DNA from: Psammoneis japonica
Taxonomy: Eukaryota
Length of the DNA stretch: 64,000 nt
Assembly (NCBI GenBank): GCA_008632985.1
Contig: QPGO01000076.1
Location: forward strand, 1-64,000
Reading direction: 5' to 3'
The notes under the pieces are model-generated. The model was not told the origin of the DNA, searched no databases, and was given only the letters and a program-made list of their open reading frames with translations. Shown piece by piece: positions 9,107-64,000 of the stretch. The translations under genes were made by a program, and so were the position numbers. Positions within the stretch are counted from its first letter, which is position 1, and each line of letters begins with the position of its first letter.

Positions 9107-10329
9107 TGTTGCTCACAACTTCATCATTACTTTCACTTACGATGATGCCCTGGGCGGCTCTGGTGTCTGAGCAGGAGGTACAGTAGGTACTGTGACAATG
9201 CGAATCACGAGTTAGCAATCGTGCAGCCATTGATGCATGTGGTGTAGGTCTACACTCTATCTTTCTGCGCAGGAACCTCGCATGACCGAGGCAATATGAT
9301 TTTGTCCTTCTCACCTTCCTTTCTACGACAATTTTATCTGAGGTCTTCATCATTTGCGTGCTCGGTGTCTAAAAACAATGACCCTTCAACGACTCATCCT
9401 GCGCTGGTGGGCAACCAAGCCTGGCTCGATGCTTCTGAATCTACAATCCACCCATGCACTGGAAAAAATGTTTGACCAAACGGCCAACAGAGTCCAGATT
9501 GCAGCATCTGAAGCAAGCACCAAGCCAAGCCCAACAGATGAGAGAGTGCCCCAGCTCCCTCAAGCTGACGGGGGTCAGCCCCGGAGCAGCAACGAAGTCA
9601 TGTGCACCTGGCCAGTGCCGCAAACTCTGTGCCAGCAAGCAGCGGGCCCTCAGAGACCCACAGGTGAAAGAGAAGAGAGATTTGCAACTTGCTTTCCAGA
9701 AATGCTGTTCCAAAAAAGTGCTGCTTTTTGAGACAACAAAGCACCAGCTCTGCGGCAGCGACAAGACTGTGTCTGAAAATGCGCTGTTTCTGCCAGCTTT
9801 CCACTCGCACACCCACCCCTGTCTGCTCCACGTGCACATGTGTGAGCCCAGTGAACATTTTGCTGTGACATTGCAGGTCATTTTCCATTGTTGGAAAAAA
9901 GCACCAGGGGTCTGCGGCGCTTTTTCCCCTGTGCCTTTCTTGTGTGCACAGAGCTGCGCGGCATGTTTGCAAGGAAAAGTGCTGCACCAGTTGAGAAAAA
10001 CATCTTTTTGCAGAAGACTTTCCATGCTTCTTTGGCACAAGAGCTGTGGCTGTCAAAGACATGTCAGCTTTTTTTTGTTTGGGCAACATCAGACCTCTTG
10101 TTCTTTGCTGAAACAAAAAGATGCTTGGCGGGGTGCGCCGCTGCGTCAAAAGGTGTTGCCAGCATGACAAAGATGACCTTGGGGAAAACAAGGTAGAAGC
10201 TGCTGCAAAAAAAATCAGCAAGAGGGCTGCAAATCAGAGCAGTGCTGCCAACGGGGCAGAAGACACAGAGCCATCCTTGTGCAGTGTTTTGGCAATGAGC
10301 AGCAGCTGTGTGGCATGTTTTCATGCTTG

Positions 10330-12200
10330 GCTCTTGACAAGAAGAAGACTTCACAACTTTTGTGCCTGTGATTGCACTCTCCACAGGTGTCACAACTTTT
10401 CAAAAGTCTGCAAAGGCGGTTGCTGCAACTGTGACTCTGAACAATGTTCTGACACTGGCTCATTTTCAGCCGCAAATCTGGCACTGCCAATGCCGTTGAC
10501 AGTTTGCAATGTTTTGTTTTGCAGCCCAGCATCTTGTTCAAAGCCCACTCATTTGTCTGGAAAAGCTCAACCCCAGCTGCCAATTGCTTTTTTTGGCACT
10601 TGTTCTGTTGCATGTGTCTCATTGTTGCATCAGGCACCACCACACAACTCAGCTGCCAGTCTGTTGTTTGCATGTTGATGGTGCCCCCTTGTCACAACCC
10701 ACCACCACTGTGTCCTTGTTGTGTGGCTGACACAAAAGAACTTTCCTTTCAAAATGAAACCCTCCCTGAGTGAACCCCAGTTGACAAACAAGGCAGTTGC
10801 AAACTTGAATGCCCCATCATTCCACCCAACTGGTGATGTCAGCTGTGTTCAAGAGCCAGGTTCACAGTGTCAAGCAGCTCCAACAGTTGCCATGTTGTTC
10901 AGCCACTGTCATCATTGGTGCTTCCCAATGTCACAAATGCTCATCAACTGGCTTGCCATCACTGCCACACTGCAATTTAACAATTTTCTGCATCAGCCCA
11001 GATCGGAGCATGGGGTTGTCAATCTGCACTTCATTCAACGCAACTTTGAATCTGATGGTTGACAACAAATGTGCCACAAACACTTTTTGGGGGTGCCAAG
11101 TCATCTGGGCTGACATGACGGCAGTCTCATTTTGTGTTTTGGCCCATGCTTGTGCACTGCACTCTGTTTTGGCTGCAGCGCAGCAGATTTCTCTGCCGGC
11201 GAACACCAAATTAAATTGTTCCCACTGTTTGTGCAGCTCTTCCTTGTTGCTCTTTGAATGCACCAGCTTTGTCCTGTTGCAGAAGATTGCAGAGGGTCAC
11301 TTGGATGTGCCATGCTTGCTCAAGTGCTGGCACCAATGAGTGACAGCTGGCTGCAGCTGAGACTTCAGTGACAGAAAACTTGCCTGACACTAAAGTTTTG
11401 TGTGCAAAGGCCAGCATGGATGACTGATGCCACATTGCAACAATGGCATCATCAACAAGATTGGCCATGAAGACTTGCTCTTGACAACTCACTGCAGCGG
11501 AGCTTACAAAGTGTCAGATTGGAGCTCATTTTTCATTTTGACAATGAAGAACTTTGCCTTGTGTTCAAAGGTGGTGCCTTTTCTTGTTGAGAACAACCCT
11601 CAGAGCTGAGAAGTTGCTCCTTTCTTTGTGGAATGTGGCCTTCAAACCTCCACTCCACACCTTCTCAAAAAGAACATTTGGGGTGTGCTTCTTTTTTGAT
11701 TCTGCTTGCATCCAGGTCAACCATGTGTGATTCTGTGGGCAATTTTGGTTCACGCAGCTGTGCACTGCCCCGTTGCTTCTTTGGTGCATGACCTTGTGTG
11801 TCTCACCACTCTTCCCTGCTGCACTCTCTTCCTTCCTTCCCCTCTGCCACTCCTGTGGATGCACCATCTGCTTTGTTGTTGTTGCCACCAATGTTGCTCC
11901 CAGCAAGGCTGCCCAAGAGAGAGAGAGACCCAAAACAGCACAGAACAAAGACTTCTCTCTTGGCTGTTGTTGCTTGCTGCCATCTAAGCTCTGCATGCAT
12001 TGCAAGGAGTGCCATGTTGCATTGGTCATGCTTGACAGCAATGGTGAGTACAAGAGCATGCTCTGCTTGTTGGGGCAAATCAAACAGCTTTTTTTCTGCT
12101 CAGCAGGTGGCAGTGCTGCAAAATTTAGAGCATCAATTGAGCTGCTCTTGGTTGAACTTTTTTCTTTGGAAGCAGCTGGCAACAAGCTCCTCTGACAACT
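10330..12200. repeat. Degenerate repeat segments re-occurring at about 14430-15650
   Basis: 11570-12160 aligns by eye to 14450-15125 (e.g. GCAAGGCTGCCCAAGAGAGAGA..CCCAAAA; TTTTTTCTGCTCAGCAGGTG..AGTGCTGCAAAA). 10335-10570 aligns to 15325-15565 (CAGGTGTCACAA.TTTTCAAAA; GCCCAGCATCTTGTTCA). Confidence 0.75.
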
Positions 12201-12409
12201 CCTTGGTGCACTGGCAGTTGCTGACTCCTTTTCCACCACACCCAGGACTTGAGCCAAGAAATTCCCATCAGCAGTTGCTGGAGTTGCTCCACATGTCCAG
12301 GTCAGACATGAGCCAAGTCAACTGCAAGGGGGGAGGCTCAAACCACTGAGTTGAAAATTTAGCATGAATGAGTCCACTGCCAGTGACGTGGAAGAGTCCC
12401 ACCAAACTG

Positions 12410-14200
12410 TGTTTGCCACCCCAGGAACACTGCTGCTAGAGGGTTTGGAGTGCAAGCCGTAAGATGGATTCGACAGCAGGGTGGTCGTGCATTGAGCAAT
12501 CGAATGCAACAAACAGGGTGTGAGCAAAAACAACAAACGACAGCTGCACACTCACTTCTGACAACGTGGATGCTCACTTCTGACAACGTCATCAGCAGTG
12601 CACTTTCCCACATGACAATGCACACTCTGCGACAGGAACAAGTGCTCCCGTCTGTGCCACATGGGCCCCCAAGACCTCACCTCCAGATGGAGGGAGTGGG
12701 AAGTTTTCCACAGTTGCCTTCTGTCTTGTAAATCCAAGCCTCCATTCATCCTTTACAACTTCCACCAAAATTGATGAACCTCTCGCATTGAAACAAACTT
12801 CCGCTTTCCATGCACGGGATCATCGCGTTCCTCAACTGCCGCGATCACAAACAAAGCACCAGGTCGAAAAAGAATTTCCGACTCACTCTTGAATTTGGAT
12901 TTTTTCGTCACGTTCACACCCGTTCAACTTTCAATCTTGAAGAGTGCATTCTTGCTCCCACCAAATTTACAACAAGCAACATGCTTTCTCAGAGAGGCAC
13001 TCAAAAAAGCCGGGTCCATCAAGGTGGCTCCAGGACGCAACGAATTGAAACGCGCTCCACCAATGTTGGCACCCCGGTGGACTGTACCTTGAAACACTGG
13101 ACAATCCCGCAACTTGCCTGTCGCCTTGATGACGGCATCCACACGGGCTTTTATTTCCAGACTCAACTTTCCAGAGCGCAAAGCGGAATTCATCTGCTTG
13201 TGGCCACCACCGGTGTGATCCTTCATTGCATTTTTGTCAGTCTCATTGCGATCGAATGTCAGCCGTTTCTTGACAGCGTTTTTCAAAAGCACCAGTGCTC
13301 GCTTTCGTGCCAACTTGATTGTTTTCCGCTCCATCAAACGAGCCTTCAATTCCTCCATGACACCGATCCGTGCAAATGCGAGCTTGATCCAAAAGTGCAA
13401 TTCCCAAATTTTTGAAAGCATCGCCTGCCTGCGAGCTTCTTCACCGCCATTGCATGTGACAATCTGTTGAGAGATGCAAGGAGACAACGAGTTTGTGAGT
13501 TTCTTTTGGGCAGACGACAGGGCAAAATGAACGAAAAACGTAAAGAACAGACAGGTCGAGACGTCCATCTCCAACGGTCCAAACACAAAGGTTTGGCAAG
13601 GCGTTCGCTGAGCCGCAAAAGTTTTGGTGGAAGTGCAAGCAGCAGTGAGTCCTTTCTTCCGAACCAGCCCTGACTCAAGGGTGCCGGATCTGTTCTCGAT
13701 TGACGCACGAGAAGAACGTGACATTTGTGCAGGTGGGCCGCACCCAACAAGCATCATGGGTGAATGCCCCTCGACCCAATCCAACACTTTCTTTTCAGCA
13801 AGCACCAGCATTCAACCGCCGGCCCGCCGCATCAGTGTCGAATGTTCGCACCGCCATTGTCTTTCTGTGTGGTCACAGACGAAAGAGCAACGGCCAGCAC
13901 TGACTTCCCTTCTCAAAGCGCCTGATGAACGAGAAGTGAGAACAAAAGTCGTGTTGTCACCATGTTGATTGATGGGGGCGAGGGCGAGCAATGAAAAGCA
14001 CGAGCTTCGCACCGGGGCTGTTTGATTTTTGTGAGAGACACATTTGCCCGTTGCGTCCTAGCAGGAGAATTGTGCAGAATGGACATCACGATTCAATTGC
14101 GCTCGCCAAGTTTTTCAGCACGAGCTGACGTCACATTCGATTTGAGTTGATCAATTGGACTTAAATCATCCTTCTGGCCTTGTCGGGTTCAGCATCCAGC
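12410..14200 (-). pseudogene. Hypermutated copy of the ~1.8 kb ADP-ribosyltransferase unit (intact-looking copy at 31000-32760)
   Basis: Collinear with 31000-32760. DYTGGGY->DHTGGGH, FLSTS->FLSAS, CGA->TGA premature stop at 12924, terminal TAA->CAA. Confidence 0.9.
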
Positions 14201-14429
14201 ACACATCTACAGTGTCTCACGCATCATGCATTGCTCATCGCTTCTCGAATCACTGTCATGCCATGATGACAGAGACGGATGAGGCCATGTGAAACGTGCT
14301 GCACAAGGAATCCAATCACAGAGAAGGAGGCGCAGGTGGGAAATCTCACAGACCCCATTTGTCAATCATGCCACCTCTTCTCAAAGTGTCAGACAGGTGC
14401 TTGTTTTTTGTTTTGACAACAGAGAACTT

Positions 14430-15650
14430 TGCTGCATGTTTTTAAAGGAGGCACATTTTCTTGTCAAGAGCAACCCGCAGAACAAAGAAGTTGCTCCACC
14501 CATCATGGAACATGGCCTTCAAACATCCACTCCGCAGCTTCAAAAAGAACACTTGGGATGTGCTGCTGCTTTTTTTGTTCTGCTTGTGAACCCAACCCAG
14601 ATCAACCATGTTGTGTGCTTCTGCGGGTGGGGACAACTTTGGCTCACACTGCTGTGCACTGCACCTGTCTTTTCTTTGGCTCTCATGACCTTGCATGACC
14701 ACTCTTTTGTGCTGCACTCTTTTCCTCAAAGTTGCTCTCTGTGTTCTCAAGGCCACCCTTCTTGCACTTCCTTTCCCTCTGTCACTCCTGCGGATGTGCG
14801 CCATCTGCTTTGCTTGTTGCTGTCATTGCCATTGTTGTTGTTGTTGTTGCCCCCAATGTTGCTCAGAGCAAGGCTGCCCAAGAGAGAGACCCAAAATGGC
14901 ACAGGACAAAGACTTGTCTTGACTGTTGTCGCTTGCTGCCATCTGAGCTCTGTGTTCATTGCAAGGAGTGCCACACTGTGCTGGTCAGACTTGACAAAAA
15001 TGGCCAGTGCAAAAGCATGCTCTGCTTGCCAGCACAAATCAGGCAGCTCTTTTTTCTGCTCAGCAGGTGACAGTGCTGCAAAACTTGGAGTGAGAGCCAA
15101 TTGAGCTGCTCTTGGTCAAACTCCATGGTGTGTGGGGCTCTTGCATTTTCTTGTGCGTGCTTTTTGTTGCTGGCCTCTGTTGTCACCAAGGTGCTTGCAA
15201 GATGCAGCTGCAACTTTCTCCAACTTGTTTTGTGGATGGGACAGGAGACACACTGCTTTGTTTTCTCCTCCAGAGAGGAGCTGTCTGCAACATGTTTTTT
15301 GACAAGAATGACAAGAAGATCAATTGACAAGAAATGAGCTTCGCACACATGCAATTGTGCCATCTGCAGGTGTCACAATTTTTCAAAAACCAACCAAGGT
15401 GGCAAAACAACACTTTGATGCTGAGACATTTTTGGCCACAAATCTGGCATTGCTTGGGTTGTCATTTGGGCTGACAGTCAATTTTTCTGGCTGTCACTGA
15501 TCTGCAACATCATGTTTTGTGGCCCAGCATCTTGTTCAGAGTTGACTCATTTGTTTGAAAGAGCTTTGGCTCAATTGCTCATTGCACTTCTTTGTGTTTC
15601 TGCTGAATTTGTCTTTTTGTTGCATGGGGCACCACCACACAAATCAGCTG
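14430..15650. repeat. Second copy of the degenerate segments at 10330-12200
   Basis: Shared blocks as listed for 10330-12200; segment order is swapped. Confidence 0.7.
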
Positions 15651-16539
15651 CTGATCTGCTTCTTGCGTGACAATGGCGGTGTGTGCTGGTGTCCTTGCTT
15701 GTCACATTTCTGACACAGTGGAGAGACTCTCCTCTCAAAACAAGCTCTTCATTGAAGCAAGCCTTTTTTGACAGACACCACAATTGCAAACTTGAGTTCT
15801 TGCCTTCCGCCCAATGTCCACTTGCACTCCATGGCCCTGCTCACAATGTGAGGCAGCTGTCATGATTTGTCACATCATCGTTTGACCCTTGTTGCCACCC
15901 ACACTTCCTGTTGCCACAAGAAATGCCCTTGCATGTTCTTGCAGTCTGTGTTTGCCTGTGGCAGTGGATTTCTCTGGAGGCAAGTGCCAAATGGCATCAA
16001 CTGTCTGTGCAGCTCTTCACATTGTTGATCTGTGAGTGTGCCAACACTGTCTCTTGCAGATTGCAGAAGACTGTGCAGAAAGTTGTTTCAGATGCTGTGC
16101 TTGTCAAAGTGCGGGCACCAATTTGCTTTTGTCAGACAAAAGGACAGGCACTCACTGTGCTGTGCCTGGCTCCAAGACCTGGGCTGCATGAGTGGCAGCT
16201 GCAACCAAGGCTTTGTTGGAGACAGAAAGCCTGTTTGACATTGGGGGGCTTTGTGCAAAGGTTGGCAGGGATGGTTGGTCGCATGTTGCAGAAGCTGTGT
16301 CAACGATGAAATTTTTTCCAACTCGTGCACTGGCCCATCCTCCCATGAGATCTGGACTTGGTGAAACTTCAGACCAGGACAAAAAAAAATGGAGGATGGC
16401 TTGCCACTCTTCATTTCTTCTGACAAAAAGAATCTCATTTCAAAAATGCCACCACAAATGTTTCCATTCTCCTCATGACATTTTGCTGCACAACTCTGTG
16501 TCTTTGTGCTGACAGCATCAGCGCGGTGCTCTTTGAAGC

Positions 16540-17140
16540 TTTGCTCAGCCACTGCCATCCAGCAATCAAACCTTTGAACATGCCAGTTTGCTGCCATGGG
16601 GAGCAAGGTGACAAGAGGCCACAATGCCACAAGATCAACCTTCCTTGCAGCGCTCATTGGCCACAGCTTCAAAGGCTTGTCTGGGGTTGCCCAGGTGCGG
16701 CCAGTGTCAGCATCCTCAGCATGCTGTTGTCAGATTCATTGGTGCCATCACAGAGTCCTTTTGCTGTGGAGCTTGGAAGTCTGCGCTGCTGGTGGGGACA
16801 AGGTGACATGGGGTCACAACCACACAAACAGGCTTGGTGCTGCTCAACCATGTGGTTGTTGCAGCATCACCTGAGATTCACCAGAGGCCACCAAAGTCCC
16901 CAGCTTGCTGTCCTCACATTGACTGGCACCATCATGGGGTCTCTTCATTCTGGAGTTGGGAGTTTGAATTGCACTTCTGGCCAAAAGGACATGACAGGGT
17001 GCACAACTGTGCCATGCCAGAACTCTTGCACTGCTCAGCCACAGCTCTCAAATTGTTGCTTGGATCCACCAGAGACTGCCAGTGCCCTCAGCCTGCCATT
17101 GTTGCTCCTGGGTTGGTTTCCTCAGGTGTTGGTGCCATCA
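16540..17140. repeat. Degenerate internally repetitive element, related to 33410-34050
   Basis: Recurrent motifs CAAGGTGACA..GG.CACAA..CCACAAGATCA.CC and TGCCAGTGCCCTCAGC.TGC..TTGT in both regions. Confidence 0.65.
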
Positions 17141-18341
17141 TGTGGGGAAGTCTGGGCCAACCTGCTGGGGACAATGAGTCAACATGTGGCCAGCACACAA
17201 CAGTGCTGGCAAAGGCAACCACTTGTCAGGGAGGAGGAATGCTGGCAGGATGTTCTGCAGCTGCGGCGCTCCTGTGTCTGTGGGTTCTGCTGCTCTGGCT
17301 GTTTGCAGGCCCACTTCCAGCACAGCTTTGACCAGCTGGTTTCTTGCTCAACCAGCTCTCCCTGCTGTCTGGCTGCAATCACCTGCACAGCCAGCTCCAT
17401 GACCTCTTTTGCCTCTCTGCCTGAAAGTTTCAATGGGCTGCAAAGATCAGCTGCAAAAGCAGCCCCGCAGACAGAAACAAATGTTTGGACAAGCACAAAT
17501 GTGAAAATTTCATTCACAACAAGAGCCTGCTGAGATGACAAAAACTGGGACACCAGCCTTCTTGAAAACCATGCGCTGCATCTGACTGAATCAATTCCAA
17601 ACCTGGCTGCATCCAACAAATGAGAGCTTGCAAAAAGTGCCCAGGACTTTGCACACACCAACAAAAAAAAGCCATGGGAAAGTCAAGAGGCCAGAAGTGT
17701 GAAAAAAGAGCAGGCAGCTCACAGCAAACAACAACAAACTGATGCTTTCCTTTCATGATTTTTTCATTTATTTGTTGAAACTCAGACAAGCAGTTGACAA
17801 AAACAGCAGCCAAGATGAGAAACAAAGTGCTGCAATTGCACACAGGTGGGCAGAAACAGCAGCATTGTGCCACACTTGCCAAAGAAAACATGCCAAACTG
17901 ACAATTCTCTGCATGTCTTCTCTGCCAGGGATCTTTGTCGCAGTGTCTCACAATGAATTGCTGTCACTGAAGCTGACTCTCTTTGAAACATGAAAGATTG
18001 GAGCACAGCATGATGCCAGCTCAGCCAAGAACACCCAGAGATGCAAGACAGCCTCCAAGAGACAATGGGAAAGACAGTGGGGCTGCAGCTCAAAGAGCAG
18101 AGGGGGCAAAGGCAACAGAATGGCAGCACAGGAAAAGAGCACGCACTAAACATCAAACAATGTCAGGTCAGAAAGTGAAGTGACAGGGGCCTCAGGCCTG
18201 TCAACTCTGGCCAAGAAGAAGGTGGCGAGAGGATCTCAGCTTGTAACCACAACATTCTTTACTGGAGTTGACCCTCTAGAGAGAAGTTTTAATTTGCACC
18301 GCAAGCTGCATTCAGTGGCACTTATTTTAGTTGCAATCCTA

Positions 18342-35700: not shown

Positions 35701-35830
35701 GACTGGTTTTCAAATCTGTCGCGGGTCAGTCCTCTCTCTCGTGATGCGGCTCCTCTCTAGCCCACCAGAGAGCAGCAATAGTCTGCTGCCAGCAGCTCCA
35801 GACACAGAGAGCACAGTGGGTCTAGAGAGG
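32770..35830. other. TpA-depleted hypermutated block 2
   Basis: Very few TA; Tyr-poor overlapping ORFs; contains the 33410-34050 repeat and a (CT)n(CA)n run at about 35366-35396. Confidence 0.85.
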
Positions 35831-50428: not shown

Positions 50429-51774
50429 GGCTCTTGACACTAGGTGGCTTCTTGGAGGAAGGTTTGCTTGTGCTTGTCCTTTTCTTCTCGAGGAGGAAAC
50501 ACAACGCAGCGAGGAAAATTCACATCATTAGTACGAACAAAATGAATGATACAGAAGGTAAAATCACTCACCTCGTAACAGCAAGCTGGATTTGTGAAAA
50601 CGAGAGAATTGTGAAGCTCAAAATGAAATAACAACAAACGCAAGCGCGAACCGCGATACCCGCGAACAGCAAACCGCGAACCTGAAGCGAACGGCAAAAT
50701 GATTTGTTTCACACAACAACCTTCAAGCAAAAGCCGCTTGTGCCGGCACATAATTGCTGAATGCTTTGCATGTGAAGCCAGCTGCAAAGGATTTGTTGGC
50801 ACAGCGCCTCAAAACGGCACTGCAACACAGGGAGATGATTGCCGGCATGCATGCGATGGAATGAGGTGAACACAATTACGAAAGAGCTGTCGTGCTCCTC
50901 CTCCGGCCGGCGGAGCATTGATTTTTTATCCTTTGTTCATTTTCACAAATGAATGAGTGCAATGCACGCATGTCCAACAACAATGAGCAAATCCAAAATG
51001 TCACTGAAATGTCCTTCGAAGAAAGACACTCAGAAGAGTTTGTGCCGCTGCCTGCACATCATGCAGTGCAGTGTCAGCCTTCTCATCACTGGCACACAAC
51101 AAAAAAAGCAGACGCGTTTGAACAATGCACCATGGCACAATGTGCTGGCAATGTATGATGGTGTGTCTGAGAATCACCAGCCATGCTTTCCCCTTCGTCT
51201 CACGACAACACCTCTTGCACAGCCGCCTGGCCTCACTCTCCCGCTGCACCCACTCTTGCCCCGCTCGCTGGGGTGCGAGAGACTTTGGTGGTGGGTGGGT
51301 TGGGTTGGGGTTGGGGTCAGCCCACCCAGCACTTTTTTCCCAGTCTTCTCTGCTTTGCTGTCATGCTTTTTGCATCTCTTTTCAACTTTCCTGCTGGGCT
51401 GTGTGGCGGCATCTGTGGCATCCTCTTCTTGGCACTTTGTTCTTTCATGAGACTTTGCCACACCCCAAGAAAGTGTGGTTGCCACGAGTGAGAATGTCTC
51501 ACTTTTTTGTGGTGAAAACTCTTCTCCTGGCCCCTTTGACTGATTTGATGTTTCTTTTGCACCTCTCTGGGTTCAAATGACTCGCCCATTGCTGCTTTCT
51601 GAGCAAGTGTCTCCACTCTGTTGATGGTGTGACAACAACGCTGCTGCTTTGAGTTTGTGGCTCATTCTGAGCTTGTGTTTTCTTGGGGTTGACAAGGGTT
51701 GCCAGGAAAATGCAAACCCGGAAATCCGGGCAGAAATTGGGGAAAACACAAACCCGGAAATCCGCAAAAACCCA

Positions 51775-51960
51775 GACAAATTGATGACAGACATGGACAT
51801 GTCCGGAAGAACCACCACTGCCATCATTGCAAGGAGCACCAAGCACCACCGTCATTCCATCTGCTGACAAAGAAATGGATTGTCCCAAATTGTCACCTTC
51901 CACTTCTTGGAATCAGCTGACAATGAAACAGATTTTCCAGCTGAGTCACGGAGCGCTTTT
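51775..51960 (-). pseudogene. Hypermutated, rearranged 3' fragments of a propeller-gene paralogue
   Basis: EGDNLGQSISLSADGMTVVLGAPCND matches 47580-47700; 51909-51960 matches 47490-47543. Confidence 0.8.
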
Positions 51961-52099
51961 GTTTGTGCAAATGACATTTAGACAAATGACTGTGATCTCT
52001 TCTGCTCTTGACTCTGCAGTCCACATGTCACTTGGGGTGGAGTTGGTGGCAAAGCGGCAGCAAAAGGAGGTGATTCCCTGTCCACCAATTCTTCAGCAT

Positions 52100-54564: not shown

Positions 54565-55622
54565 ACAAAGTTTTTGACGGTCTTAAGAGGTTTTCTCTGC
54601 CTTTTGTGACTGGACGGCTTTTTGTTGGGTGAGTGCTCCAAAGCCTCGGAAGCCTCTGAAGAAGATGAGGAATCCATTGTCTTTTGGCTTGAGCAGGCTG
54701 CAAATGCCGGTGTTGTTCATGAACAATGAGAGCAGCAACAGGCGAGTCATCCGATCTTTGCCAATTACCACTTGCCTGGTGCTGAGTGAGTTGCCAGTGT
54801 GTGCGGACCACGTCATGCAATTTCCACTTGCTGGGTGCCACCGCAAGCGAGAGAGCAGATCATCCAAAGCTGGTGTGAACAGCATGACTGAGCGAGACAG
54901 CCAGAAAACATTGAGAACCGACTGTGAGCGAAAGCAATGTCTCCATGGAGGATGAGGCCATCACAAACGAGCATCCCGAGGCTGCTTTGGTTGAATTTTT
55001 GTTTGCTGAATCAATGAATGTAGTTCGTTGTGCATCGAACTATCTTCTCAGGAAAGAACTGAAGATTGTTGATGAAATCTTTGGGATTGTCTAGAAAACA
55101 AGGAGCCAGTCATTTCTGCAATGACATCATTTCGTGACGGCATGATTGAGCATGATGGTGTGGACAAGGCCACCCACACGCTGATCCAAACAATTGATGT
55201 TGCTCTACAGAATCGTTTGCATTTCGCTGTTTGGCAAAAACAAGAAATCAAGGAATTGTTCTTCCAGAAAAAACTGCTTGAGAGCAAAGCCCACGATGTC
55301 TTCACGCAGGCAATGTTTGAATTGGAGACTGTCCTCGACATCATTTCCAGCTGGAATGCGGAAAGTGCCTTCTTGATGCACAAGGAGTGCACAGCTGAAT
55401 TGGAGGCATCCAAGAAATGGTTTGTTGAGAATCGGCGCTGCAAGGAATTTCAGGCTGTCCGCATCTGTGACAAATCACACTGCTGTGAAGAAATCCATTG
55501 CAGCAGCATGGACGATGAATCGTTTTTGACAGACCAAGTGGGCGACAAGCTTTGTGAATGAGAGGAAGAGCTAGTTGCATCAGTTGCATCTGTGAATGTA
55601 GAGGACACCTGCGGCACGTCTG

Positions 55623-55857
55623 TGCGACAACTCTCGTCTGAGAGCTGGGAGATGTTGATGGAAGGTGAGCAGCAATCGCACTGCCAGCAGCAGGGCTGAC
55701 AATGGCGATGGAATCGACAAAGCTGCCAATGTCTTGTTGCACTGGGTGTTGCAATTGTGAGCAGAAAAAGGGGAGAAGTTCTCCAAAAGAAGGGCGGGAA
55801 ATCGCGTGCGTGAGTGAAGAGCGCACGAATCGCGCATGAGTTCGCACTGTGTTGACA
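55623..55857 (-). repeat. 3' LTR
   Basis: Direct repeat of 61696-61930, preceded (minus strand) by the PPT. Confidence 0.95.
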
Positions 55858-55866
55858 CTCCCTCTC
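55858..55866 (-). promoter_or_regulatory. Polypurine tract
   Basis: GAGAGGGAG immediately before the 3' LTR. Confidence 0.85.
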
Positions 55867-55877
55867 GAACAAAGAAG

Positions 55878-58800
55878 CTGCCAACCACAAAGCAACTTGC
55901 AAATAGACTCAAATTTGACCGTGACGAGTCCTTTTGTTAAAATGTCAGCGCATTGCAGGTCTGTTGCGATCTTAGATGCAGCAATTCGGTTTGGTTTCAG
56001 CTGTGAACAAAACCAGCGACACTTGATTGCGCAGTGCTTGGACCTTGGCGTAACTTGGCCAGGTTCCATGTTAGCCAGAGTCAAGGCTCCAGCATTGTCC
56101 TCCCACACGGTGGTCCTGATGGTCTTGGTGGTCCCCAGACCAACTCCAATGCCTTGGGAGATGGCTTGCACAGTGCGAAGAAAGGGAAGGACAGTTTTCA
56201 TGCATGTGGAGAGAGAGCGCTGCACTCTGCCTCCATGGTTGAGAGTGCGATCTCGGGTGCAAGCTTGCCAGACCAGACAACAGGACAGTTTGAAATGCAA
56301 GCAACAAATCCTGTTCGGCTCTTGACACAAGCCGGGTCTTGCATGTCTTCATGCGGCCACAATCCAGCAAAATCTGAGTCAACAAAAACATCAATGTTGA
56401 AGTCCCCAGATGGCTTGAGGATCAAACCTTCCTCCAGTGCACCCTTGAGGCATCGGCCAATCCTCTCGAGGGCTTGTTCATGCAAGCAGTGCAGACTGTG
56501 AACAAATCTTGTGGCAGAGCTAAGTGCATGGGTGATGTCAGGCCTTGAATGGCCCTGGAGATGCTGGAGCATGCCAACAACACTGGCGCAATTGAAAGCT
56601 CCATTTGGTGGGTTTCCATCGGTGTCCTTGACCAAATGGGCAGCCAGTGCCCCCATGTTTGGGCCTTTGGCAGATGGCCCACATTGAGGGCTTCGACGAC
56701 ACGCTTGGCTGGGCCGCTCTGGGTGAGCTTGACAGTGCCATTGTCGGTGTTGCAATGGATGTGGACGCCCAAAAAACCTGCGACGGAATCCTCGACTTTG
56801 ATGGCCAGACCGCCATCAATTTTGAGTTTTTCAATCACTTCGTTGATGCACTCTTGCTTCAGTGAAAAGAACAATGTGTCGTCAACATGCACAAGGCAGA
56901 TGACCTCATCGGACACGAAAAGGCACGGATCAACATCATCTTGAGATTGAAATCCGACGTCTTCAAGTTTTGATTTGAGGTGCAGGAAAAAGTTGCGTGG
57001 TCCTTGCTTGAGACCATGCATGGTCTTCTTCAGTTGCAGCACTTTGTGTGGGGCTTTGTGTGACCGCGAGGCATTTGCATGAACACGCCAGAGCGTTCCC
57101 GTTCTTCAGGCATCATGGTGTCCCATTTGGGATCTTCATCAATCGGAGCATGCACGAAAGCCATGACATGATCAACTTGCTTCATGGAGAACTCAAGAAT
57201 TTGAGAAAGCATGAGCATCAGCCACGCTGTTGTCCAATTGACAACTGGAGCAAAGGTGTCAAAACAATCAACACCTTCCAATTGCTTGTCACCGCAGACA
57301 CAGAATTGGGCTTTGTGTTTCTGGATTGACCCATCAGGGTGCCGTTTGCATTTGAAGGCCCAAGTGGATGGCAGAACATTCATCCAATCTTGGCGGTCAA
57401 CCTCCTCCCAAGCATCTTTGCCGTTGACAAGGGAGTCAATTTCGACATCACAAGCCTTGAGATGGGCTGCACGATCGGGCTCACTCACAGCTTCTTCCCA
57501 AGCAGGGTTGTCGGCAGAATTTGCATTAGCTGCAAGAGCCAGAGGATGCATTTCTTCGAGTGTGCCGTGAACTTGATCGGTGTTTTTGTTGAAAAGGTTG
57601 ATCACAGCACGCAAGTCTTTTGATTGGAGTGCGTTTGTAACACTGTCCCACTTCTTTGGGGCCATCAGAAACTGCTTGTTGAGTGTCTCTGATTTGGCCA
57701 TTCGTTTGGGATTCTTGCAGGCTGCTGGCAACTCGTTTGGAGGAGTGCGAGTGTCAGCCATCATGGCTTCAACAAGGCGGTCCGGTTTCTTGATGGTGCG
57801 GCGCTGCGAGTCCAAGTGGCAGCAGCAGGAGCATTCGGCGCCGCTTCAGTGGGCTCAGCGATGTCTGAGCCAAGATCCAGGTCTTCAGGCAAGTCGTGAT
57901 GGTCAACTAGGGACAAATCGTTGTTGCTGTTGTCGCTGGACTCATCGATTTCGACTCCCTCTGGAGCCTCTGAAGTTGCAGATGCCAGATCATCGATGAT
58001 TCAGGATCAGCAGGAAGCGCTCCCTCTGGAGCTGTGATGGAAGAGGTTGGTTGAGGTTTAGTTTTGCCAGGAGAGGCGCGCTGTTGGCGGCGCAACTTCC
58101 ACGCCTGACGATGGGTCTCATGGTGGCGGCGCTCTTTGGGCATCAGCCAATCGTCATGCAGTGCGGGCAAGTGATGGCGAGGGTCCTCAGAAGGCTCGTG
58201 GTCAAGAGCGTGGTTGACCATGGAGTCAGCAGCAAGCAGGGACTCCCAAACGTCAGCGGAGAAAGGGATGTCCTGAAAGTGCCCCCCAGAGTCACTGTTG
58301 GGCACGGTGGAGAAGTGGTTGTTGTAGACCACATGGTGTTGAGGGCCAACACAGCCTGTCACAAGGTTGAGGATCAGGTCAATGTTCATGGAATGAGCCG
58401 GGGAGATGCCAAGGTGTTGGCCGCGATGGCTGCGCAGGTCCCACTTCGAAACTTTCTTGCCATCCTGCAGTTTGGGATCTAAAACATGCACAGGACAGCC
58501 CCACACTTGCAAGCACTGTAAATGCATGCAGGAATCAAAGCATTGCTTGGAATGGATCTCGACAGGAGCAGTGCGAGTGTCAACTTTCAGAAGATGATTC
58601 CACAAATGAGCGGCGTGAGTCATGGCAAAAGGCCAAAGTTCCAGATTGGCGGCATCAGGCCACATGAGGACGGCATGGAGCAACGCAGATCTTGCCCATG
58701 AGGTGGTGGTTTGAATGGAGCACTCAGCAATGCCGTTTTGATGATGGGCGCCAACACCAGAGAAGTCTGTTGTCTGGTGGTTCTCTTTGAGATCTTGCAT

Positions 58801-59300
58801 GAAGGCCTCAGAGCCAAAAGGGATGTTGTCAGCAAGGTGTTGCTTGACCTGGACCCCAAATTGGTCACCAAGCTGCTCAAAGGCACGCTCAGCACATGTG
58901 GTTTCACCTGCAGTGAGACCAACTTGATGGGTCAGGAACATGCAGCTAGAGGCGTGATCGACACTGGTTGATGGAAGACGGCCAGGGACGCGGCTGATGT
59001 GCTGGTCAACAGAGACGCATTGACCTGGAGACAAATCGCCCCCTCTCACAACACCATGGGCAGAGGTTTCGATGTGCTGCGGCGGTCCGGAGTGCGCCGC
59101 TTTTGTTTGGCCAGTTGACAGGCGGCACATGATGGAGGTGCACAACCTGCCACCATGTCAGATTTGGGTTTAAGGACTTGGGATTTGGTGGGATCCCTTG
59201 GGACAGCACTGAGATGTTGGATGTGTTGGAAGCCAGCGTGACCAAGTTTTTGATGAAGCAGCAGAAGCTCCTTTTGACCTGGACGTTGGATGAAGGAAGG
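55878..59300 (-). pseudogene. pol: Copia pol (integrase, reverse transcriptase, RNase H), frameshifted; protease not recognisable
   Basis: LHQKLGH...CAACQLAK; VDHAS; ADN..F; GAHHQNGIAE; WGCPVHVLDP.LQDG; WAFKCK; DTFAPVV.W; LKK.MHGLKQ.PRNF; CLVHVDD; VDSDFAG; ALSTMEAE; EDN.GA; ADILTKGL; LLCGW. Confidence 0.95.
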
Positions 59301-59709
59301 AACAAGTGGGGTCTCTTCGTGGGAATCGAACTGGATGACGGTCCAAACGACGAACTTGCACGTGATGACATGATTTGTGGTGCATCCGATGATGAAGAGG
59401 ATGATGATGTGGGCTGTGTTCCAAGGACAAGGTGACAACAAACCAAGGCATGTCATCGCATGAGAGCGAAGGATTCTTGGAAAAGAGCAGCAAGCAGAAA
59501 AACAACCCACCTGCTGAAACAAAAAGGAACTGCAAAATGGCAGAGACGGCTGCTTCTCCTCCCTCTGCAAGAATCTGGAGAGCAAACCACAAGAGGAGGG
59601 ACTGCACCGCAGTCATGCAAGCCTGGATGTCCCTTCCAGAAAAGGTTGTTTTGCTGAAAAGCGAAAAAGGGTGGGCTGCATGCTCAAAGAAGGAGGCGTG
59701 CCCGAAGCT

Positions 59710-61230
59710 TCAGGTGAAGGAAGCAAAGAGACCAGTGATGGTCTCGGCGACCTCGCGCTTGGCATTTGCAACAGCCACTTTGCGGTCCGGATGCAGAGCG
59801 GAAGCAGGGGCCGGGGCAGGAGCAGGTGCAGGAAGTGCTGGGGGCACAGTGGCAGCACCAGCAACTTGAGCAACAGGGCACAAGCGCTTGGTCTTGTGTC
59901 GACAGCAGTGATCTTCACCATCAATGTTGCGGCGACTGTCATTGTTCTTCTCGGCGTCAGTTGAGGGTTGCCATTTCTTGGGAATGGTCTTGGTTGGCTT
60001 GCCATCCTTCCTGGAAGAGGCATCGTTTTTGTTCTGAGCCCGTTTCACGTCAAAAAACAGTTTCTTGTTTGCACGCACTCGTGCATCGTCGACGGGCTGC
60101 TTGCAGTCGGAAAGAGGATGAGGGCCACCACAATTGAAGCAGTTGACTCCTCCAGCAACAAATGCGGTTGCATTCTTCTCAGCAGTCACGCTGGACCACT
60201 GGTCAGAAGATGCAAGGGCCGGGTGTTGAGCCTCCACGAATTCAAGGAGATCAGGCACGGATGTGGTGCTGATGGTCGGACCACTGGACTCAAGCTTGGA
60301 GATTTGAGAGTCCTTGGTGAGGTGGTCAAAAAGGGAATTAAATTCCGGGATGCTGGAGGTCTGGAACACCTTGGTGAGGTTTTCCATGAAATCAGAAGGA
60401 ATGACAGACTTGCCTTTCTGATCCTGGAGGTTCTGGAGTCGAGTGCATCCACCACGGATGAGTGAGACAACTTTGCCAACGTCTTCACCATCAAAATTGG
60501 TGATCTTGAGCAAGATCATGTTGGCGACCAAATGACGAGCAGCCTCCTTGGAGTTGCTCTGCAGGAATTTCATCACAAGCAAGAAAAAGAGAGGTCCGCC
60601 TTGTTCTTCTTGCGGATGCTTGAGGCATGTCTCGTTGACTTTCTCCTGGAGGGCACAAGAGGCGTTCCTCTCAAAACAGTCACAGGCAAGACGAAGGTTT
60701 TGGCTGGCTGAGGTCCCATCAGGGTCCTCGAGTGTCGTAGAGTGCCACTTGTTGCTCTTCACGACTTCGGCTTCGGTGATCGTCAAATGCTCGGTGCAAA
60801 GATCACGAGTCTTGAAGGTGACAGGATCGACAATTTGGAAAACATCGTCCACATCGCACTTGACGTGGTTCGACCGCATGGTCGAGATGGACATGGCCAG
60901 ATCACAAGTGTCTTCAAGTTTGTCCGGATCATTGATGTTGAAATTTAAGAGGTCAAAACGCGTCTGCAGTTTCGCAGCAGCTTGCTGGAATGAGTCATTG
61001 AGCTTGTCCGGGTCCAACTTGTTCCTCTGCTGTTTAGTGCAGAGAGCAGCAAGAGCATCCATGGACGTTTTAGGGGTCACGCGGACTTTGACTTTCCTGC
61101 TGTTTATCTCCACCTCAGCAGTCGTGGTGCTGGCAGGCGGAGTCGGCGGAGTCGGCGGACATGGAGGCGGAGTCGGCGGACTTGAAGGCGGAAGAGGTGG
61201 ACTCGCTGATGGGCTGGTCATGCGAGTCAC
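59710..61230 (-). pseudogene. gag: Copia gag-like ORF with zinc knuckle
   Basis: EQGGPLFF, FQTSS.PEFN..F, CFNCGGPHPLSDC; 506 aa without a single Tyr. Confidence 0.85.
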
Positions 61231-61681
61231 TCAAGGAAATGCAGGTTCTTTGGATGACGGTCAGCAGTTTGACCGTTGTCCATCCGGAAGTGAGCCCATT
61301 GTCAAGTTGTGCGGGTGACAGTGGCCTGACGGTCTCGAATTGTTGCTGTGCGACGAAAGTTTCAAACTTCGTTCGTCATCACAATGCGGTCGCCGACACA
61401 AAAATCTGCGACGGTCAGTTCTCTGTCAATGACAGGCCAAGATGGTCCGGCTCCAGCTCTGTCACGGTTCTGTCATTCGCGTTCAGATGCAATGCGATGA
61501 ACTGAGTCGGCTTCTTGCAGTTGAAGCTCTTGTGGTTGTTCAATGAGGTCGTCCAGTGTCTCAGAACTGCAATTGGACATCAACGTTCTGCACACAGAAT
61601 TGCACGTAAAAATGTACAGAGCTCAATTCTCGTCCACCGGAGAGAAAAGAGATGAGGCGCAGGAGTCGTCAAGCATGATGC

Positions 61682-61695
61682 TTGGGCTCCTGACC
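61682..61695 (-). promoter_or_regulatory. Primer-binding site (degenerate copia-type, half-tRNAiMet)
   Basis: GGTCAGGAGCCCAA directly after the 5' LTR resembles copia GGTTATGGGCCCA. Confidence 0.6.
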
Positions 61696-61930
61696 TGTGA
61701 CAACTTCGTCTGAGAGTCAGGAGATGTCGACGGAAGGTTGAGCAGTGATCGCATTGCCAGCAGTGGGGCTGACAATGGCAACAGAATCGACAGGGCTGCC
61801 AATGTCTTGTCACACTGGGTGTTGTAATTGTGAGCAGAAAAAGGGGAGAAGTTCTCCAAAAGAAGGGCGGGAAACCGCACGCGCAAGTGAAGAGCGTGCG
61901 AGTCGCGCATGAGTTCGCACTGTGTTGACA
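61696..61930 (-). repeat. 5' LTR
   Basis: Direct repeat of 55623-55857. Confidence 0.95.
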
Positions 61931-62059
61931 GTCTGGACTGGACACAGAATTGATTCCGCAATCCCCTCTGGAGAGCAGGAAGAAGAAAAAGAGTTCAAAG
62001 CAGAACTTCAAAAATGCAGGTGGGAAACATTGAAACTGCAGCATGTGATGATGTGTTTC

Positions 62060-64000
62060 AAATCAATGTCTTGACCCAACTTGCTCCAAGCTGTGCCAAT
62101 GAGTTGACAAACACAAACATGTCCGGCATTGACAATGTTGTGGCTGTCGTTCCCACGCACACCAATCACCACACAGTCATTCCGTCCCCCGATGAGGATG
62201 CTGAACATCCAGAACAATTGTCAGCTGCTTCTCATCAACATCCTGACCCAACTGGATCCAAGTCATTCCAACAAGTTGATGAACATGAACATGTCCAGCT
62301 CAGTTGCCAACCCCATCATTTTCGTTGGCTCCAATTGCAACAGTCATTCCGTCAGCTGAAATGGAAATGGAACATCCAAATTGATCACCTCTCGCTTCTC
62401 CATCGATGTCCTGGCGCCCATCTGCGTCCAGACCAGCCAATCTGCAATGGAAAGTTCTCTCTGGTGTTGAGATGAAAGCCACTGACACAGACTTGTCCAA
62501 TTTGACAAACTGTTCCCATCGGCAGGGAAGCATCGTTTGTTTGACAGATCATGATGCGTCTTGAGACGAAAAATGAATGAAGAAAGCATGCAAACTGTGA
62601 GCTTCAGGATTTTGTCATTGTGAGCACTGCACAAAAGGAAAAGACAAAGTTGGTGCAAAATCGGACAATCTTTCAACTTTCGATGATGAATGGTGCAATG
62701 TTCTTCCCTCTTTGCCACTCAAGCTTTTCTTCATGTCGAAACTGTGATGCGCCTTGATCATGGTCATTTCTTTTGCGAGCATGGCAGTTGCCAAAAGGGT
62801 CTTCAGGACTGCTGTTGGGAACTTCATGGCTCTTGACCCCAGGTGGCTTCTTGGAGGAAGGTTTGCTTGTGCTTGTCCTTTTCTTCTTGAGGAGGAAACA
62901 CAATGCAGTGAGAAAAATTCACATCATTGGTGCGAACAAAATGAATGACACAGAAGGTAAAATCACTCACCTCGCAACAGCATGCTGGATCTGTGAAAAC
63001 AAGAGAATTCTGAAGCTCAAAATGAAACAACAACAAATGCAAGCACCAACCGTGACACCTGCGAACAGCAAACTGTGAACCTGAAGCAAACGGCAAAATG
63101 ATTTGTTTCACACAACAACCTTCGAGCAAAAGCCGCTTGTGCTGGCACACAATTGCTGAATGCTTTGCATGTGCAAGCCAGCTGCAAAGGATTTGTTGGC
63201 ACAGCACCTCAAAATGGCACTGCAACACAGGGAGATGATTGCCGGCACCGGCATGCATGCAATGGAATGAGGTGAGCACAATTGCGGGAGAGCTGTCGTG
63301 CTCCTTGTCTGGCGGAGCATTGATTTTTTATCCTTTGTTCATTTCACAAATGAGTGAGTGCGGTGCATGCATGTCCAACAACAATGAGCAAATCCAAAAT
63401 GTCACTGAAATGTCCTTCGAAGAAAGACACTCAGAAGAGTTTGTGCCACTGCCTGCACATGCAGGCAGTGCAGTGTCAGCCTTCTCATCGCCGGCACAAC
63501 AAAAAAGCAGACGCGATTTGAACAATGCACCATGGCACAATGTGCTGGCAATGCATGATGGTGTGTCTGAGAATCACCAGCCATGCTTTCCCCCTTGTCT
63601 CACAATGACACCTTTTGCACAGCCACCTGGCCTCACTCTCCCGCTGCACCCACTCTTGCCCCACTCGCTGGGGTGCGAGAGACTTTGGTGGTGGGTGGGT
63701 TGGGGTTGGGGTCAGGGTCAGCCCACCCAGCACTTTTTTCCCAGTCTTCTCTGCTTTGCGGTCATGCTTTTTGCATCTCTTTTCAACTTTCCTGCTGAGC
63801 TGTGTGATGGCAACTGTGGCATCCTCTTCTTGGCACTTTGTTCTTTCATGAGACTTTGCCACACCCCAAGAAAGTGTGGTTGCCACGAGTGAGAATGTCT
63901 CACTTTTTTGTGATGAAAACTCTTCTCCTGGACCCTTTGACTGATTTGATGTTTCTTTTGCACCTCTCTGGGTTCAAATGACTCACCCATTGCTGCTCTC
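62060..64000 (-). pseudogene. Hypermutated duplicate of the 5' part and upstream region of the propeller gene (49670-51600)
   Basis: Collinear alignment; GYSVS->GCSIS, GHVRVYQ->GHVCVCQ, KAYHS->KAHHS; small indels. Confidence 0.92.

Follow-up and report, generated by a model that had tools for sequence, protein, structure and literature searches.

The 64,000-nt stretch of Psammoneis japonica DNA analysed here (the window) probably carries the record of a real, locally confined hypermutation of diatom chromosomal DNA at TpA dinucleotides, acting in place and domain by domain. Four blocks, together 31,509 bases or 49% of the window (Table 1), are almost devoid of TpA, with an observed/expected ratio (O/E) of 0.05 (103 TA) compared with 0.59 (1,341 TA) in the gene islands. 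This division into blocks and islands had been described in the original prediction, which ascribed it to a strand-symmetric T:A to C:G process specific to TpA on silenced or repetitive chromatin.

The depletion extends throughout the blocks, as TA O/E is at most 0.17 in all 62 of their 500-bp windows (median 0.037). The longest stretch without TA spans 3,326 bases in block 1 (14443–17769), and a run of this length at the island TA frequency would have a chance of about 1e-61. CA and TG are enriched in the blocks (O/E 1.71 and 1.66), CpG is reduced (O/E 0.40), and the CA+TG excess is about the same size as the missing TA and CG. The counts of CA (3,296) and TG (3,339) are close to equal in every block, in agreement with the strand symmetry that had been proposed. 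The predicted loss of stop triplets is also found, with TAA falling from 315 in the islands to 40 in the blocks and TAG from 321 to 32; TGA, in contrast, numbers 631 in the islands and 765 in the blocks. Block borders are abrupt, the change being complete within about 100–150 bp or less. Island DNA outside long ORFs has a TA O/E of 0.69 (598 TA in 11.8 kb), and an intergenic, low-complexity TA-rich tract at about 5.6–5.9 kb is unaltered. Since non-coding island DNA retains its TAs and the edges are abrupt, the loss of TA is regional.

Table 1. Features of the 64-kb window (positions within the window).
Feature	Position	Strand	Details
TpA-depleted block 1	9445..18150	.	23 TA in 8.7 kb; edges 9442 and 18147/18244
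TpA-depleted block 2	32800..35800	.	13 TA in 3 kb; CpG O/E 0.11-0.22
TpA-depleted block 3	40050..46600	.	20 TA in 6.5 kb; edges 39989/40071 and 46501
TpA-depleted block 4	50750..64000	.	47 TA in 13.3 kb; continues past window end
Hypermutated ART gene duplicate and flanks	12557..14208	-	88.8% identity to 31125-32760
ART gene, island source copy	31125..32760	-	Pfam ART / ADPrib_exo_Tox, E ~3e-12; TpA normal
FG-GAP source segment, island	49666..50750	-	91.6% identity to 62062-64000
Hypermutated FG-GAP repeat fragment	51502..51912	-	Pfam FG-GAP_2, E 7.7e-5; 91% identity to 47613-47699
Degenerate Copia-type LTR retrotransposon	55621..61934	-	LTRs 55621-55861 and 61694-61934; Pfam domains between
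Block copy of 1.9-kb duplication	62062..64000	-	former gene part to ~63150, then distal part

The identifiable content of the blocks is in every case a transposon or a host-gene duplicate. Of 111 ORFs scanned in the blocks, five gave a Pfam match to a transposable-element or host-gene family, and about 22 kb is unannotated. Among ORFs of at least 110 aa, the copy of a gene with an ADP-ribosyltransferase (ART) domain is alone in block 1 in having a Pfam match, and none of the 12 in block 2 has one. A 369-aa ORF in block 1 (16424–17530) has no relatives among 1.84 billion representatives. The lone Pfam row for block 3 ORFs, URGCP (E 0.0094), was rejected at 15.7 bits, under the curated cut-off of 27. 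Block 4 comprises the Copia element, FG-GAP fragments and unannotated DNA. Two scans of viral contigs, a weak search, returned no viral relatives of block sequence.

The ART gene is present both in an island and in block 1, and the island copy serves as the polarising reference for the pair. Of its 57 TAs, 46 have been replaced in the block copy by CA or TG, as the original prediction had stated for duplicated sequences, and CG has become CA or TG at 28 of 105 sites. T>C changes are found at 28/57 TpA sites and at no more than 10/96 sites in other contexts; A>G changes follow T at 19/57 sites, with no more than 6/135 elsewhere. The island copy encodes six Tyr residues and the block copy none, the motif DYTGGGY having become DHTGGGH. 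At sites with Y in the island copy but H in the block copy, outgroup ART proteins have Y (or F), which identifies TA, rather than CA or TG, as the ancestral state.

The second pair derives from a 1.9-kb duplication that straddles an island/block edge, and its gene part is altered solely in the copy that lies within the block. The island source segment consists of the 5′ part of an FG-GAP propeller gene and upstream DNA. In the block copy, 34 of its 36 TAs are CA or TG, and CG has changed to CA or TG at 33/62 sites. In a comparison that the original prediction had set as a possible refutation, T>C was found at 18/36 TpA sites, compared with 0/84 at TpC, 1/73 at TpG and 2/76 at TpT, which bears out the specificity for TpA that had been claimed. 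The state in outgroups had been set as another such check and likewise favours the prediction. A>G is likewise found at 16/36 sites after T and at no more than 3/86 after any other base. The propeller motif GHVRVYQLIG has become GHVCVCQLIG or GHVHVHQLVG. In the gene part of the block copy, hypermutation followed copying. The distal part shares 95% identity with 50751–51599, where 166 sites agree as CA/CA or TG/TG and only two are CA-vs-TG mismatches, and was without TA before duplication.

Across both pairs, TA has become CG at none of 93 sites, and an island CA or TG has become TA in a block at none of 373 sites, a direction opposite to that of fungal RIP, as predicted. The background divergence at which TA was converted is 3.2% in the FG-GAP pair and 5.3% in the ART pair, so that conversion exceeds background divergence by at least 30–90 times, a comparative lower bound calculated from both pairs. 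The order of strand choice along the pairs is without runs (p 0.07 and 0.31). How often TA survives varies with the nucleotide 5′ of its T (A>G>C>T). Flanking bases strongly shape survival but not which strand is altered (logL −56.2, compared with −55.5 for a coin flip), and this counts against a simple one-strand enzyme motif, which would predict the strand.

The retrotransposon in block 4 retains gag_pre-integrase, integrase SH3 and RVT_2 domains (Pfam) in its interior, and its reverse-transcriptase motif reads LVHVDD, so that all three of the residue changes from which the original prediction had fixed the direction are present. Its two LTRs are identical at 209 of 240 positions and differ by seven CA-vs-TG double mismatches, compared with about 0.4 expected from CpG decay alone (calculated from 11 CG/CG and six CG-vs-CA/TG sites). 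Each LTR must therefore have lost TAs separately, after integration. This timing makes it extremely unlikely that the changes arose before integration, through hyperediting of the RNA or cDNA of transposons by ADAR-like or APOBEC-like enzymes, even though a Copia retroelement lies in one block and ADAR-type enzymes favour a 5′ U (Mettrop et al., bioRxiv 2026, 10.64898/2026.01.13.699255, Discussion). Moreover, the ART and FG-GAP copies that were mutated had been duplicated at the DNA level, non-coding flanks included, and the lack of runs in strand choice also argues against such editing.

TpA loss is accompanied in the blocks by partial decay of CpG. Deamination of 5-methylcytosine converts CpG to TpG or CpA only and cannot remove TA. 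It leads to the same end products and would explain the partial CpG loss, which is attributed here to ordinary 5-methylcytosine deamination. In contrast to TA depletion, which is strong throughout, CpG O/E ranges from 0.03 to 0.97 per 500 bp. The two losses are largely uncoupled over the 62 sub-windows (Spearman rho 0.29), and the ART block copy has lost 81% of its TAs vs 27% of its CGs. The separation of the two processes made in the original prediction is thus upheld.

The prediction's statement that no system with this signature had been described is outdated. In the chlorarachniophyte Bigelowiella natans, hypermutation of TpA to CpA or TpG affects integrated viruses, namely NCLDV and virophage DNA, and the NCLDV region is 1.8-fold depleted in TpA (Mettrop et al., 2026). 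In Illumina-sequenced mutation-accumulation lines of this species, 230 of the 231 de novo mutations in two regions were of this type, at about 1000 times the background rate and in some lines only (Mettrop et al., 2026). An older footprint consists of clusters poor in TpA and rich in CpA+TpG that carry reverse-transcriptase and DDE-endonuclease domains, and an ADAT2-like candidate was put forward, with adenine deamination favoured (Mettrop et al., 2026). Both organisms share T>C and A>G transitions limited to TpA, yielding CpA and TpG, and a regional restriction that leaves neighbouring DNA normal. Judged by its sequence pattern, the diatom case has the same signature and may involve shared machinery. 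No report of TpA hypermutation in a diatom was found in the literature searched. New here are the diatom (stramenopile) host, the near-saturated loss of TA, and identified targets that comprise a retrotransposon and host-gene duplicates, those in B. natans being viral. CpG decay alongside TA loss is absent from the B. natans signature, and the evidence from the diatom is comparative, whereas that from B. natans is direct, de novo mutation.

Some sequencing platforms miscall modified bases, and a modified base at TpA that was misread, the real DNA being TA, could potentially mimic such a pattern. This explanation is highly unlikely. Contigs derived from reads (X1) span blocks and islands at a word depth of 52–62 and contain the TA-free sequence at island-like depth. 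They differ from the assembly at 0–8 positions per 1–1.5 kb overall, with no other letters across 33845–35343 and one across 32715–33759, and a depth of 52–57 in block 2. Among the differences listed for block 3, only three of 27 are between TA and CA/TG, which does not point to present-day activity. X1 represents one sample from one study, to which the runs with this DNA are limited; its library type is unrecorded and its reads are possibly the assembly's own source, so the exclusion of an artefact leans partly on reasoning. Every site is settled as either CA or TG, while a misread palindrome would be expected to be called differently on the two strands and to break contigs. The patterns in the paralogues, the LTRs and the duplication record events both before and after copying, which an artefact of present-day DNA could not produce. 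The same changes also arose de novo in the Illumina-sequenced B. natans lines.

RIP in ascomycete fungi converts CpA to TpA, raises AT content and mutates every copy of a duplication. It is premeiotic and requires a RID-type enzyme and a sexual cycle. The diatom pattern resembles RIP in its dinucleotide-specific transitions, which irreversibly inactivate transposons and duplicates in a compartmentalised genome. It differs in its reversed direction, with TA ancestral by outgroups, and in that the island source copies of both duplications are unmutated, retaining 57 and 36 TAs. That duplication itself is sensed and mutated, the domains being repeat arrays, could be suggested by the transposons and host-gene duplicates that make up all identifiable block content, by the raised read depth over some block parts, and by DNMT4 enzymes, which are related to fungal RID and are present in many diatoms with unknown function (Hoguin et al. 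2023, PMC9998398). Such a trigger is nevertheless improbable. The island ART copy has a read depth of 645–943 vs about 57, or 11–16 times single-copy, and thus belongs to a multi-copy family; the copies counted by depth are at least 90% alike, and the island member still retains its TAs. Block 3 is mostly at the single-copy depth of 57–62, and the mutated tracts reach far past the duplicated segments found in the window. Of the proposal that silenced or repetitive chromatin is targeted, action on whole domains that hold the transposon and duplicates therefore stands, while a RIP-like repeat trigger does not. We infer that targeting is via a chromatin or silencing mark rather than sequence repetition.

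Under domain-wide hypermutation in place, nearly every 5′-TA-3′ within a domain would undergo a single transition, T>C giving CA or A>G giving TG. Both products lack the palindromic target; with the target lost at the first transition, TA would never proceed to CG. Mutation would occur once a sequence lies inside a domain, striking the Copia retrotransposon, DNA-level host-gene duplicates and unannotated DNA alike, and would halt within about 100–150 bp of the domain edge, sparing adjoining genes and non-coding DNA. The process would be quicker than, and mostly uncoupled from, the decay of CpG to TpG or CpA in the same blocks. Its outcome would be irreversible coding damage, with Tyr changed to His or Cys and TAA and TAG stops lost.

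The leading candidate for the chemistry, with about an even chance of being correct, is that a TadA/ADAT-like deaminase acting on DNA turns the adenine of TpA into hypoxanthine on a randomly chosen strand. To our knowledge, no natural enzyme performs adenine deamination on chromatin. ADAR and TadA enzymes share the A>G change with a 5′ T/U preference (Mettrop et al., 2026), and ADAR/APOBEC-type deaminases likewise inactivate genomic parasites; in the diatom, by contrast, the substrate is integrated chromosomal DNA, with both strands affected equally and without clustering. A chemistry on the thymine side, whether TET/JBP-type oxidation that mispairs with G, amination by an enzyme, or repair at TpA that is biased or error-prone, is rather unlikely. 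From sequence alone, T>C on one strand is indistinguishable from A>G on the other, and the survival order by the base 5′ of the T would suit motifs centred on T and on A equally. Kinetoplastids and dinoflagellates hydroxylate thymine at TpA, and the oxidised base can pair wrongly with G; we know of no thymine modification that causes near-complete T>C conversion. Adenine deamination is also preferred by the B. natans authors, with their ADAT2-like candidate (Mettrop et al., 2026).

That diatoms possess a chromatin-domain-directed A:T to G:C TpA editor of double-stranded DNA, homologous to the Bigelowiella system and SAR-wide or older, is a tentative and on balance doubtful proposal. If true, it would represent a natural DNA adenine base editor acting as an irreversible genome defence, and an ancient counterpart of fungal RIP with the chemical direction reversed.

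Four blocks of the window have a TpA observed/expected ratio (O/E) of 0.00–0.13 in a 1-kb dinucleotide scan, against 0.35–0.98 elsewhere. With the block limits set as in the table of features, the blocks add up to 31,509 bases and make up 49% of the window. The original prediction of TpA-poor blocks between islands of normal TpA (the rest of the window, which carries the genes) is borne out by overall TA O/E values of 0.05 and 0.59, respectively. All 62 of the 500-bp sub-windows of the blocks have a TA O/E of 0.17 or less, and the longest TA-free run (14443–17769; 3,326 bases) has a probability of about 1e-61 at the island TA frequency. The combined surplus of CA and TG in the blocks, about 1,900, approximates the deficit of TA plus CG, and the two products are equally represented in each block (CA/TG 958/937, 325/353, 723/712 and 1290/1337 in blocks 1–4).

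Features of the window: TpA-depleted blocks, annotated elements and duplications
Feature	Coordinates	Strand	Location	Remarks
Block 1	9445–18150
Block 2	32800–35800
Block 3	40050–46600
Block 4	50750–64000
Degenerate Copia-type LTR retrotransposon	LTRs 55621–55861 and 61694–61934	minus		LTRs of 240 bp; gag_pre-integrase, integrase SH3-like, two RVT_2 pieces
FG-GAP fragment	51502–51912		block 4	Pfam scan
ADP-ribosyltransferase (ART) copy	12557–14208		block 1	Pfam scan
FG-GAP propeller gene	46978–50304	minus	island	1,108-aa open frame; diverged units of about 171 bp
Duplication 1	12557–14208 vs 31125–32760		block vs island (ART gene plus flanks)	88.8% identity, DNA level
Duplication 2	49666–51599 vs 62062–64000			91.6% identity, DNA level

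Dinucleotide composition of blocks and islands
Measure	Blocks	Islands
TA count	103	1,341
TA O/E	0.05	0.59
CG O/E	0.40	0.96
CA O/E	1.71	1.18
TG O/E	1.66	1.18

The islands carry ordinary eukaryotic genes (RING, histidine phosphatase, PhyH, DUF4336, RWD, ART, an intron-split GcpE/IspG and a large FG-GAP propeller), and the assembly has a single N at position 2699. Protein matches to the GcpE exon share 77–91% identity, none of the 120 listed being identical. The named matches legible among these 120 all come from diatoms (Conticribra weissflogii, Fistulifera solaris, Cylindrotheca closterium and Attheya), and further abbreviated names are read, by interpretation, as Thalassiosira, Odontella, Grammatophora, Extubocellulus, Triceratium and Pseudo-nitzschia. 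On these matches the host is a diatom. In the FG-GAP gene, contigs from sequencing runs X1 and X2 skip 133 bases at 47434–47568, possibly a repeat-number variant.

From islands to blocks, TAA triplets drop from 315 to 40 and TAG triplets from 321 to 32, while TGA goes from 631 to 765; this scarcity of TAA and TAG explains the many long, overlapping open frames of the blocks. There are 112 of at least 110 aa, on both strands, nearly all without a family match, and gene predictors may call spurious genes in such DNA, where TAA/TAG stops are few and long spurious ORFs arise in every frame. A Pfam scan of all 112 (12927–13811 included) recovered the tabulated elements; among the other ORFs, two gave rows under the cut-offs and the remainder had no match. 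About 22 kb of block DNA is without annotation. A 369-aa ORF (16424–17530) in the longest TA-free run has no relatives among 1.84 billion representatives and may be a spurious open frame. Two other block ORFs had no relatives in viral contigs, a weak result given that near-exact peptide words are needed and the ORFs are heavily mutated. A metagenome scan with the Copia integrase gave a single distant relative (L001; 33% identity), the TA O/E of which, 0.78, is uninformative.

Self-BLAST of the window gave 32 HSPs, with two DNA-level duplications that provide island/block pairs: the ART pair (duplication 1) and the FG-GAP pair, the gene part of the 1.9-kb duplication 2 (island 49666–50750; block-4 copy 62062 to ~63150). 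At the 57 TA sites of the island ART copy, the block copy reads CA at 27, TG at 19, TA at 7 and other dinucleotides at 4; at the 36 of the FG-GAP pair it reads CA at 18, TG at 16, TA at 1 and TC at 1. None of the island CA or TG sites is TA in the block copy (0/214 and 0/159, respectively), while island CG has become CA or TG at 28/105 and 33/62 sites. In the FG-GAP pair, T>C occurs at 18/36 Ts before A, 0/84 before C, 1/73 before G and 2/76 before T, and A>G at 16/36 As after T, 1/120 after A, 3/86 after C and 1/82 after G; CpG transitions comprise C>T before G at 19/62 and G>A after C at 14/62 sites. No TA in either pair has become CG (0/93), so that one hit ends susceptibility.

Three ART proteins with 40–44% identity served as outgroups for polarisation. 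Both tyrosines of the island motif DYTGGGY are histidine in the block copy, and the outgroups carry Y/Y/Y and F/Y, so CA/TG is not ancestral; tyrosines in the ART ORF fall from six in the island copy to none in the block copy. The active-site motif of reverse transcriptase is usually YxDD; that of the Copia element reads LVHVDD. The propeller motif GHVRVYQLIG has become GHVCVCQLIG and GHVHVHQLVG in block copies. These paralogue pairs support the core of the original prediction, a TpA-specific, strand-symmetric T:A-to-C:G hypermutation of domains, and its expected restriction of T>C to TpA is upheld by the neighbour counts. Selection or codon usage as the cause is ruled out, as pseudogenes and non-coding DNA are also affected. 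The island ART copy itself has a histidine (CAC, 31649–31651, in QGTVHRG) at a position that is tyrosine in each of the three outgroups (VYRG); the block copy also has histidine there, and either variation between lineages or an old TA-to-CA change that preceded the duplication could account for it.

The LTRs of the Copia element, taken as identical at integration, now agree at 209 of 240 positions and include 11 CG/CG sites, 6 of CG against CA/TG and 7 double mismatches of CA against TG. With CpG decay put at about 0.21 per copy from these CpG counts, only about 0.4 CA-versus-TG mismatches would be expected, and the excess implies that, once the element had integrated, the ancestral TAs of the two LTRs were resolved independently of each other. 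RNA or cDNA editing is thereby ruled out as the source for this element, and pre-integration editing in general is given very little credence. The 1.9-kb duplication straddles an island/block edge and records two histories. Its distal part (50751–51599 against 63151–64000) is 95% identical, with CA/CA or TG/TG agreement at 166 sites and a CA-versus-TG mismatch at only 2, and was thus already TA-free at copying. In its gene part, 34 of 36 TAs have been lost, only in the copy now inside block 4. Background divergence outside TA and CG is 28/885 (3.2%) in the FG-GAP pair and 68/1278 (5.3%) in the ART pair, which places TA conversion at no less than about 90 and 30 times background, respectively; both are lower bounds, as conversion is saturated. 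Divergence-based dating of transposons would be distorted by such a process.

A misreading of a modified base at TpA, with the true DNA still TA, is considered highly improbable. A misread palindromic site should give opposite calls on the two strands and shatter k-mer assembly, and before- and after-duplication histories cannot result from misreading present-day DNA. Three runs of one sample from one study contain 0.92 (X1), 0.29 (X2) and ~0 (X3) of the sampled words of the stretch. Contigs from X1 cover 30/30 bins of 28001–48000, with single-copy bins at a word depth of 55–65 in blocks and islands equally; X2, guessed to be DNA, covers 15/30 bins, none wholly inside a block. The X1 contigs differ from the window by no letters at 33845–35343, one at 32715–33759, six at 39963–41396 and eight at 43165–44123, although the assembly may have been built from X1, and this agreement is therefore not independent replication. 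Block 3 has at least 27 full-depth differences between reads and window, listed as 15 CG exchanged with TG/CA, 3 with TA in the reads and TG/CA in the window, and 9 others. The three TA sites in the reads (40093, 43521 and 44943) may mark TA-loss sites at which alleles or strains differ.

The domains are sharply bounded. At 9442, 18147/18244, 35758, 39989/40071 and 46501, the island TA spacing of ~25 bp is replaced by hundreds of bases free of TA, and the edges at 32716–33008 and 50657–51154 are somewhat graded, over ~150–400 bp. Island TA O/E is 0.69 outside long ORFs and 0.53 inside them, and a TA-rich low-complexity intergenic tract with CTAG/TAGTAG-type motifs is intact at ~5.6–5.9 kb. Together, these observations show that the process is not a genome-wide one from which selection rescues genes, and the sharpness of the edges rules out UV or other untargeted damage. 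The 1-kb window that holds this tract (5001–6000) has a TA O/E of 0.98 and an AT O/E of 0.57.

Repetition is insufficient as a trigger. Summed depth of read contigs at least 90% alike is 645–943 over the island ART region (31336–32669), against ~57 for single-copy DNA, which implies a gene family with about twelve members at that similarity, yet the island ART copy keeps its TAs; conversely, block 3 is TA-depleted at a mostly single-copy depth of 57–62. A repeat-sensing trigger is therefore regarded as unlikely. Read contigs of the island ART region show several variant positions. In block 2, those at 33400–34050 have numerous joints and back-steps as well as loose ends, and their depth reaches 519; this points to repeats of a dispersed or rearranged family. 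Within the blocks, TA is low throughout, whereas CpG O/E spans 0.03–0.97 (Spearman rho 0.29, p 0.02, n = 62). The older ART copy has lost 81% of its TAs and 27% of its CGs, and the younger FG-GAP copy 94% and 53%. On this sequence evidence, block CpG loss is read as probable ordinary methyl-CpG deamination, variable by sub-region, atop a faster, separate TA process.

The choice between CA and TG shows no significant runs along either polarised copy (27/19, p 0.07; 18/16, p 0.31), leaving a processive one-strand model without support. Flanking bases affect TA loss strongly. The blocks retain only 3 ATAN sites to the islands' 370, and 20 TTAA sites to their 63. An additive model, in which the loss rate sums one contribution from the base 5′ of T and another from the complement of the base 3′ of A, yields terms of 2.54 (A), 1.68 (G), 1.12 (C) and 0.50 (T) and, with a baseline that assumes island-like NTAN in the block ancestors, outperforms a no-flank model (likelihood-ratio chi-square 87.9, 3 df, p 6e-19). 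ATA/TAT are the most susceptible flanks and TTAA the least. For the strand changed at 80 polarised sites, the flank terms perform no better than a coin flip (logL −56.2 vs −55.5); the opposite strand assignment is rejected (logL −69.9).

The analysis shows a process that is TpA-specific, single-hit per site, strand-symmetric, unclustered, post-integration, domain-bounded, fast and flank-sensitive. Its chemistry is given an even chance of being deamination of the adenine of 5′-TA, on either strand, by a TadA/ADAT-like deaminase that acts on DNA and would be brought in by a chromatin or silencing mark. The chief rival, at a distinctly lower probability, is a thymine-side reaction or biased repair. 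Fungal RIP works in the opposite direction and mutates all copies, whereas the island source copies here keep their TAs. According to Hoguin et al. (2023; PMC9998398), many diatoms encode RID-related DNMT4 enzymes to which no function has been assigned, which offers a lead only.

The original prediction knew of no described system, but the same signature is already reported in a 2026 preprint on Bigelowiella natans (Mettrop et al., bioRxiv 10.64898/2026.01.13.699255). In that work, 231 of 302 nuclear mutations in Illumina-sequenced mutation-accumulation lines fell in two regions, one an integrated NCLDV of 186 kb and the other a virophage region, and 230 of these 231 were A>G or T>C, all on TpA, at ~1000 times the background rate. 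Only some lines were hypermutated (11/15 for the NCLDV and 6/15 for the virophage region). The preprint also describes 124 genomic clusters poor in TpA and rich in CpA+TpG, enriched for reverse-transcriptase and DDE domains, and proposes DNA adenine deamination with an ADAT2-like candidate; the words trinucleotide, flanking, diatom and stramenopile do not occur in its main text. A literature search found the signature neither for diatoms nor for any second organism, with most subscription-journal papers out of its reach.

Given that preprint, the phenomenon is not categorically new; new are the lineage, the target classes, the near-saturation and the mechanistic constraints, namely action on integrated DNA, domain limits, independence from repetition as a trigger, random strand choice and a strong flank effect. 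A natural editor that turns A into G in DNA specifically at TA would be of interest for genome engineering. TpA-specific hypermutation has so far been described in that single preprint for one chlorarachniophyte. A near-saturated signature in a diatom would show that the process extends beyond a single lineage and beyond viral inserts, and a wider distribution would make comparative gene-presence profiling possible as a route to the enzyme.
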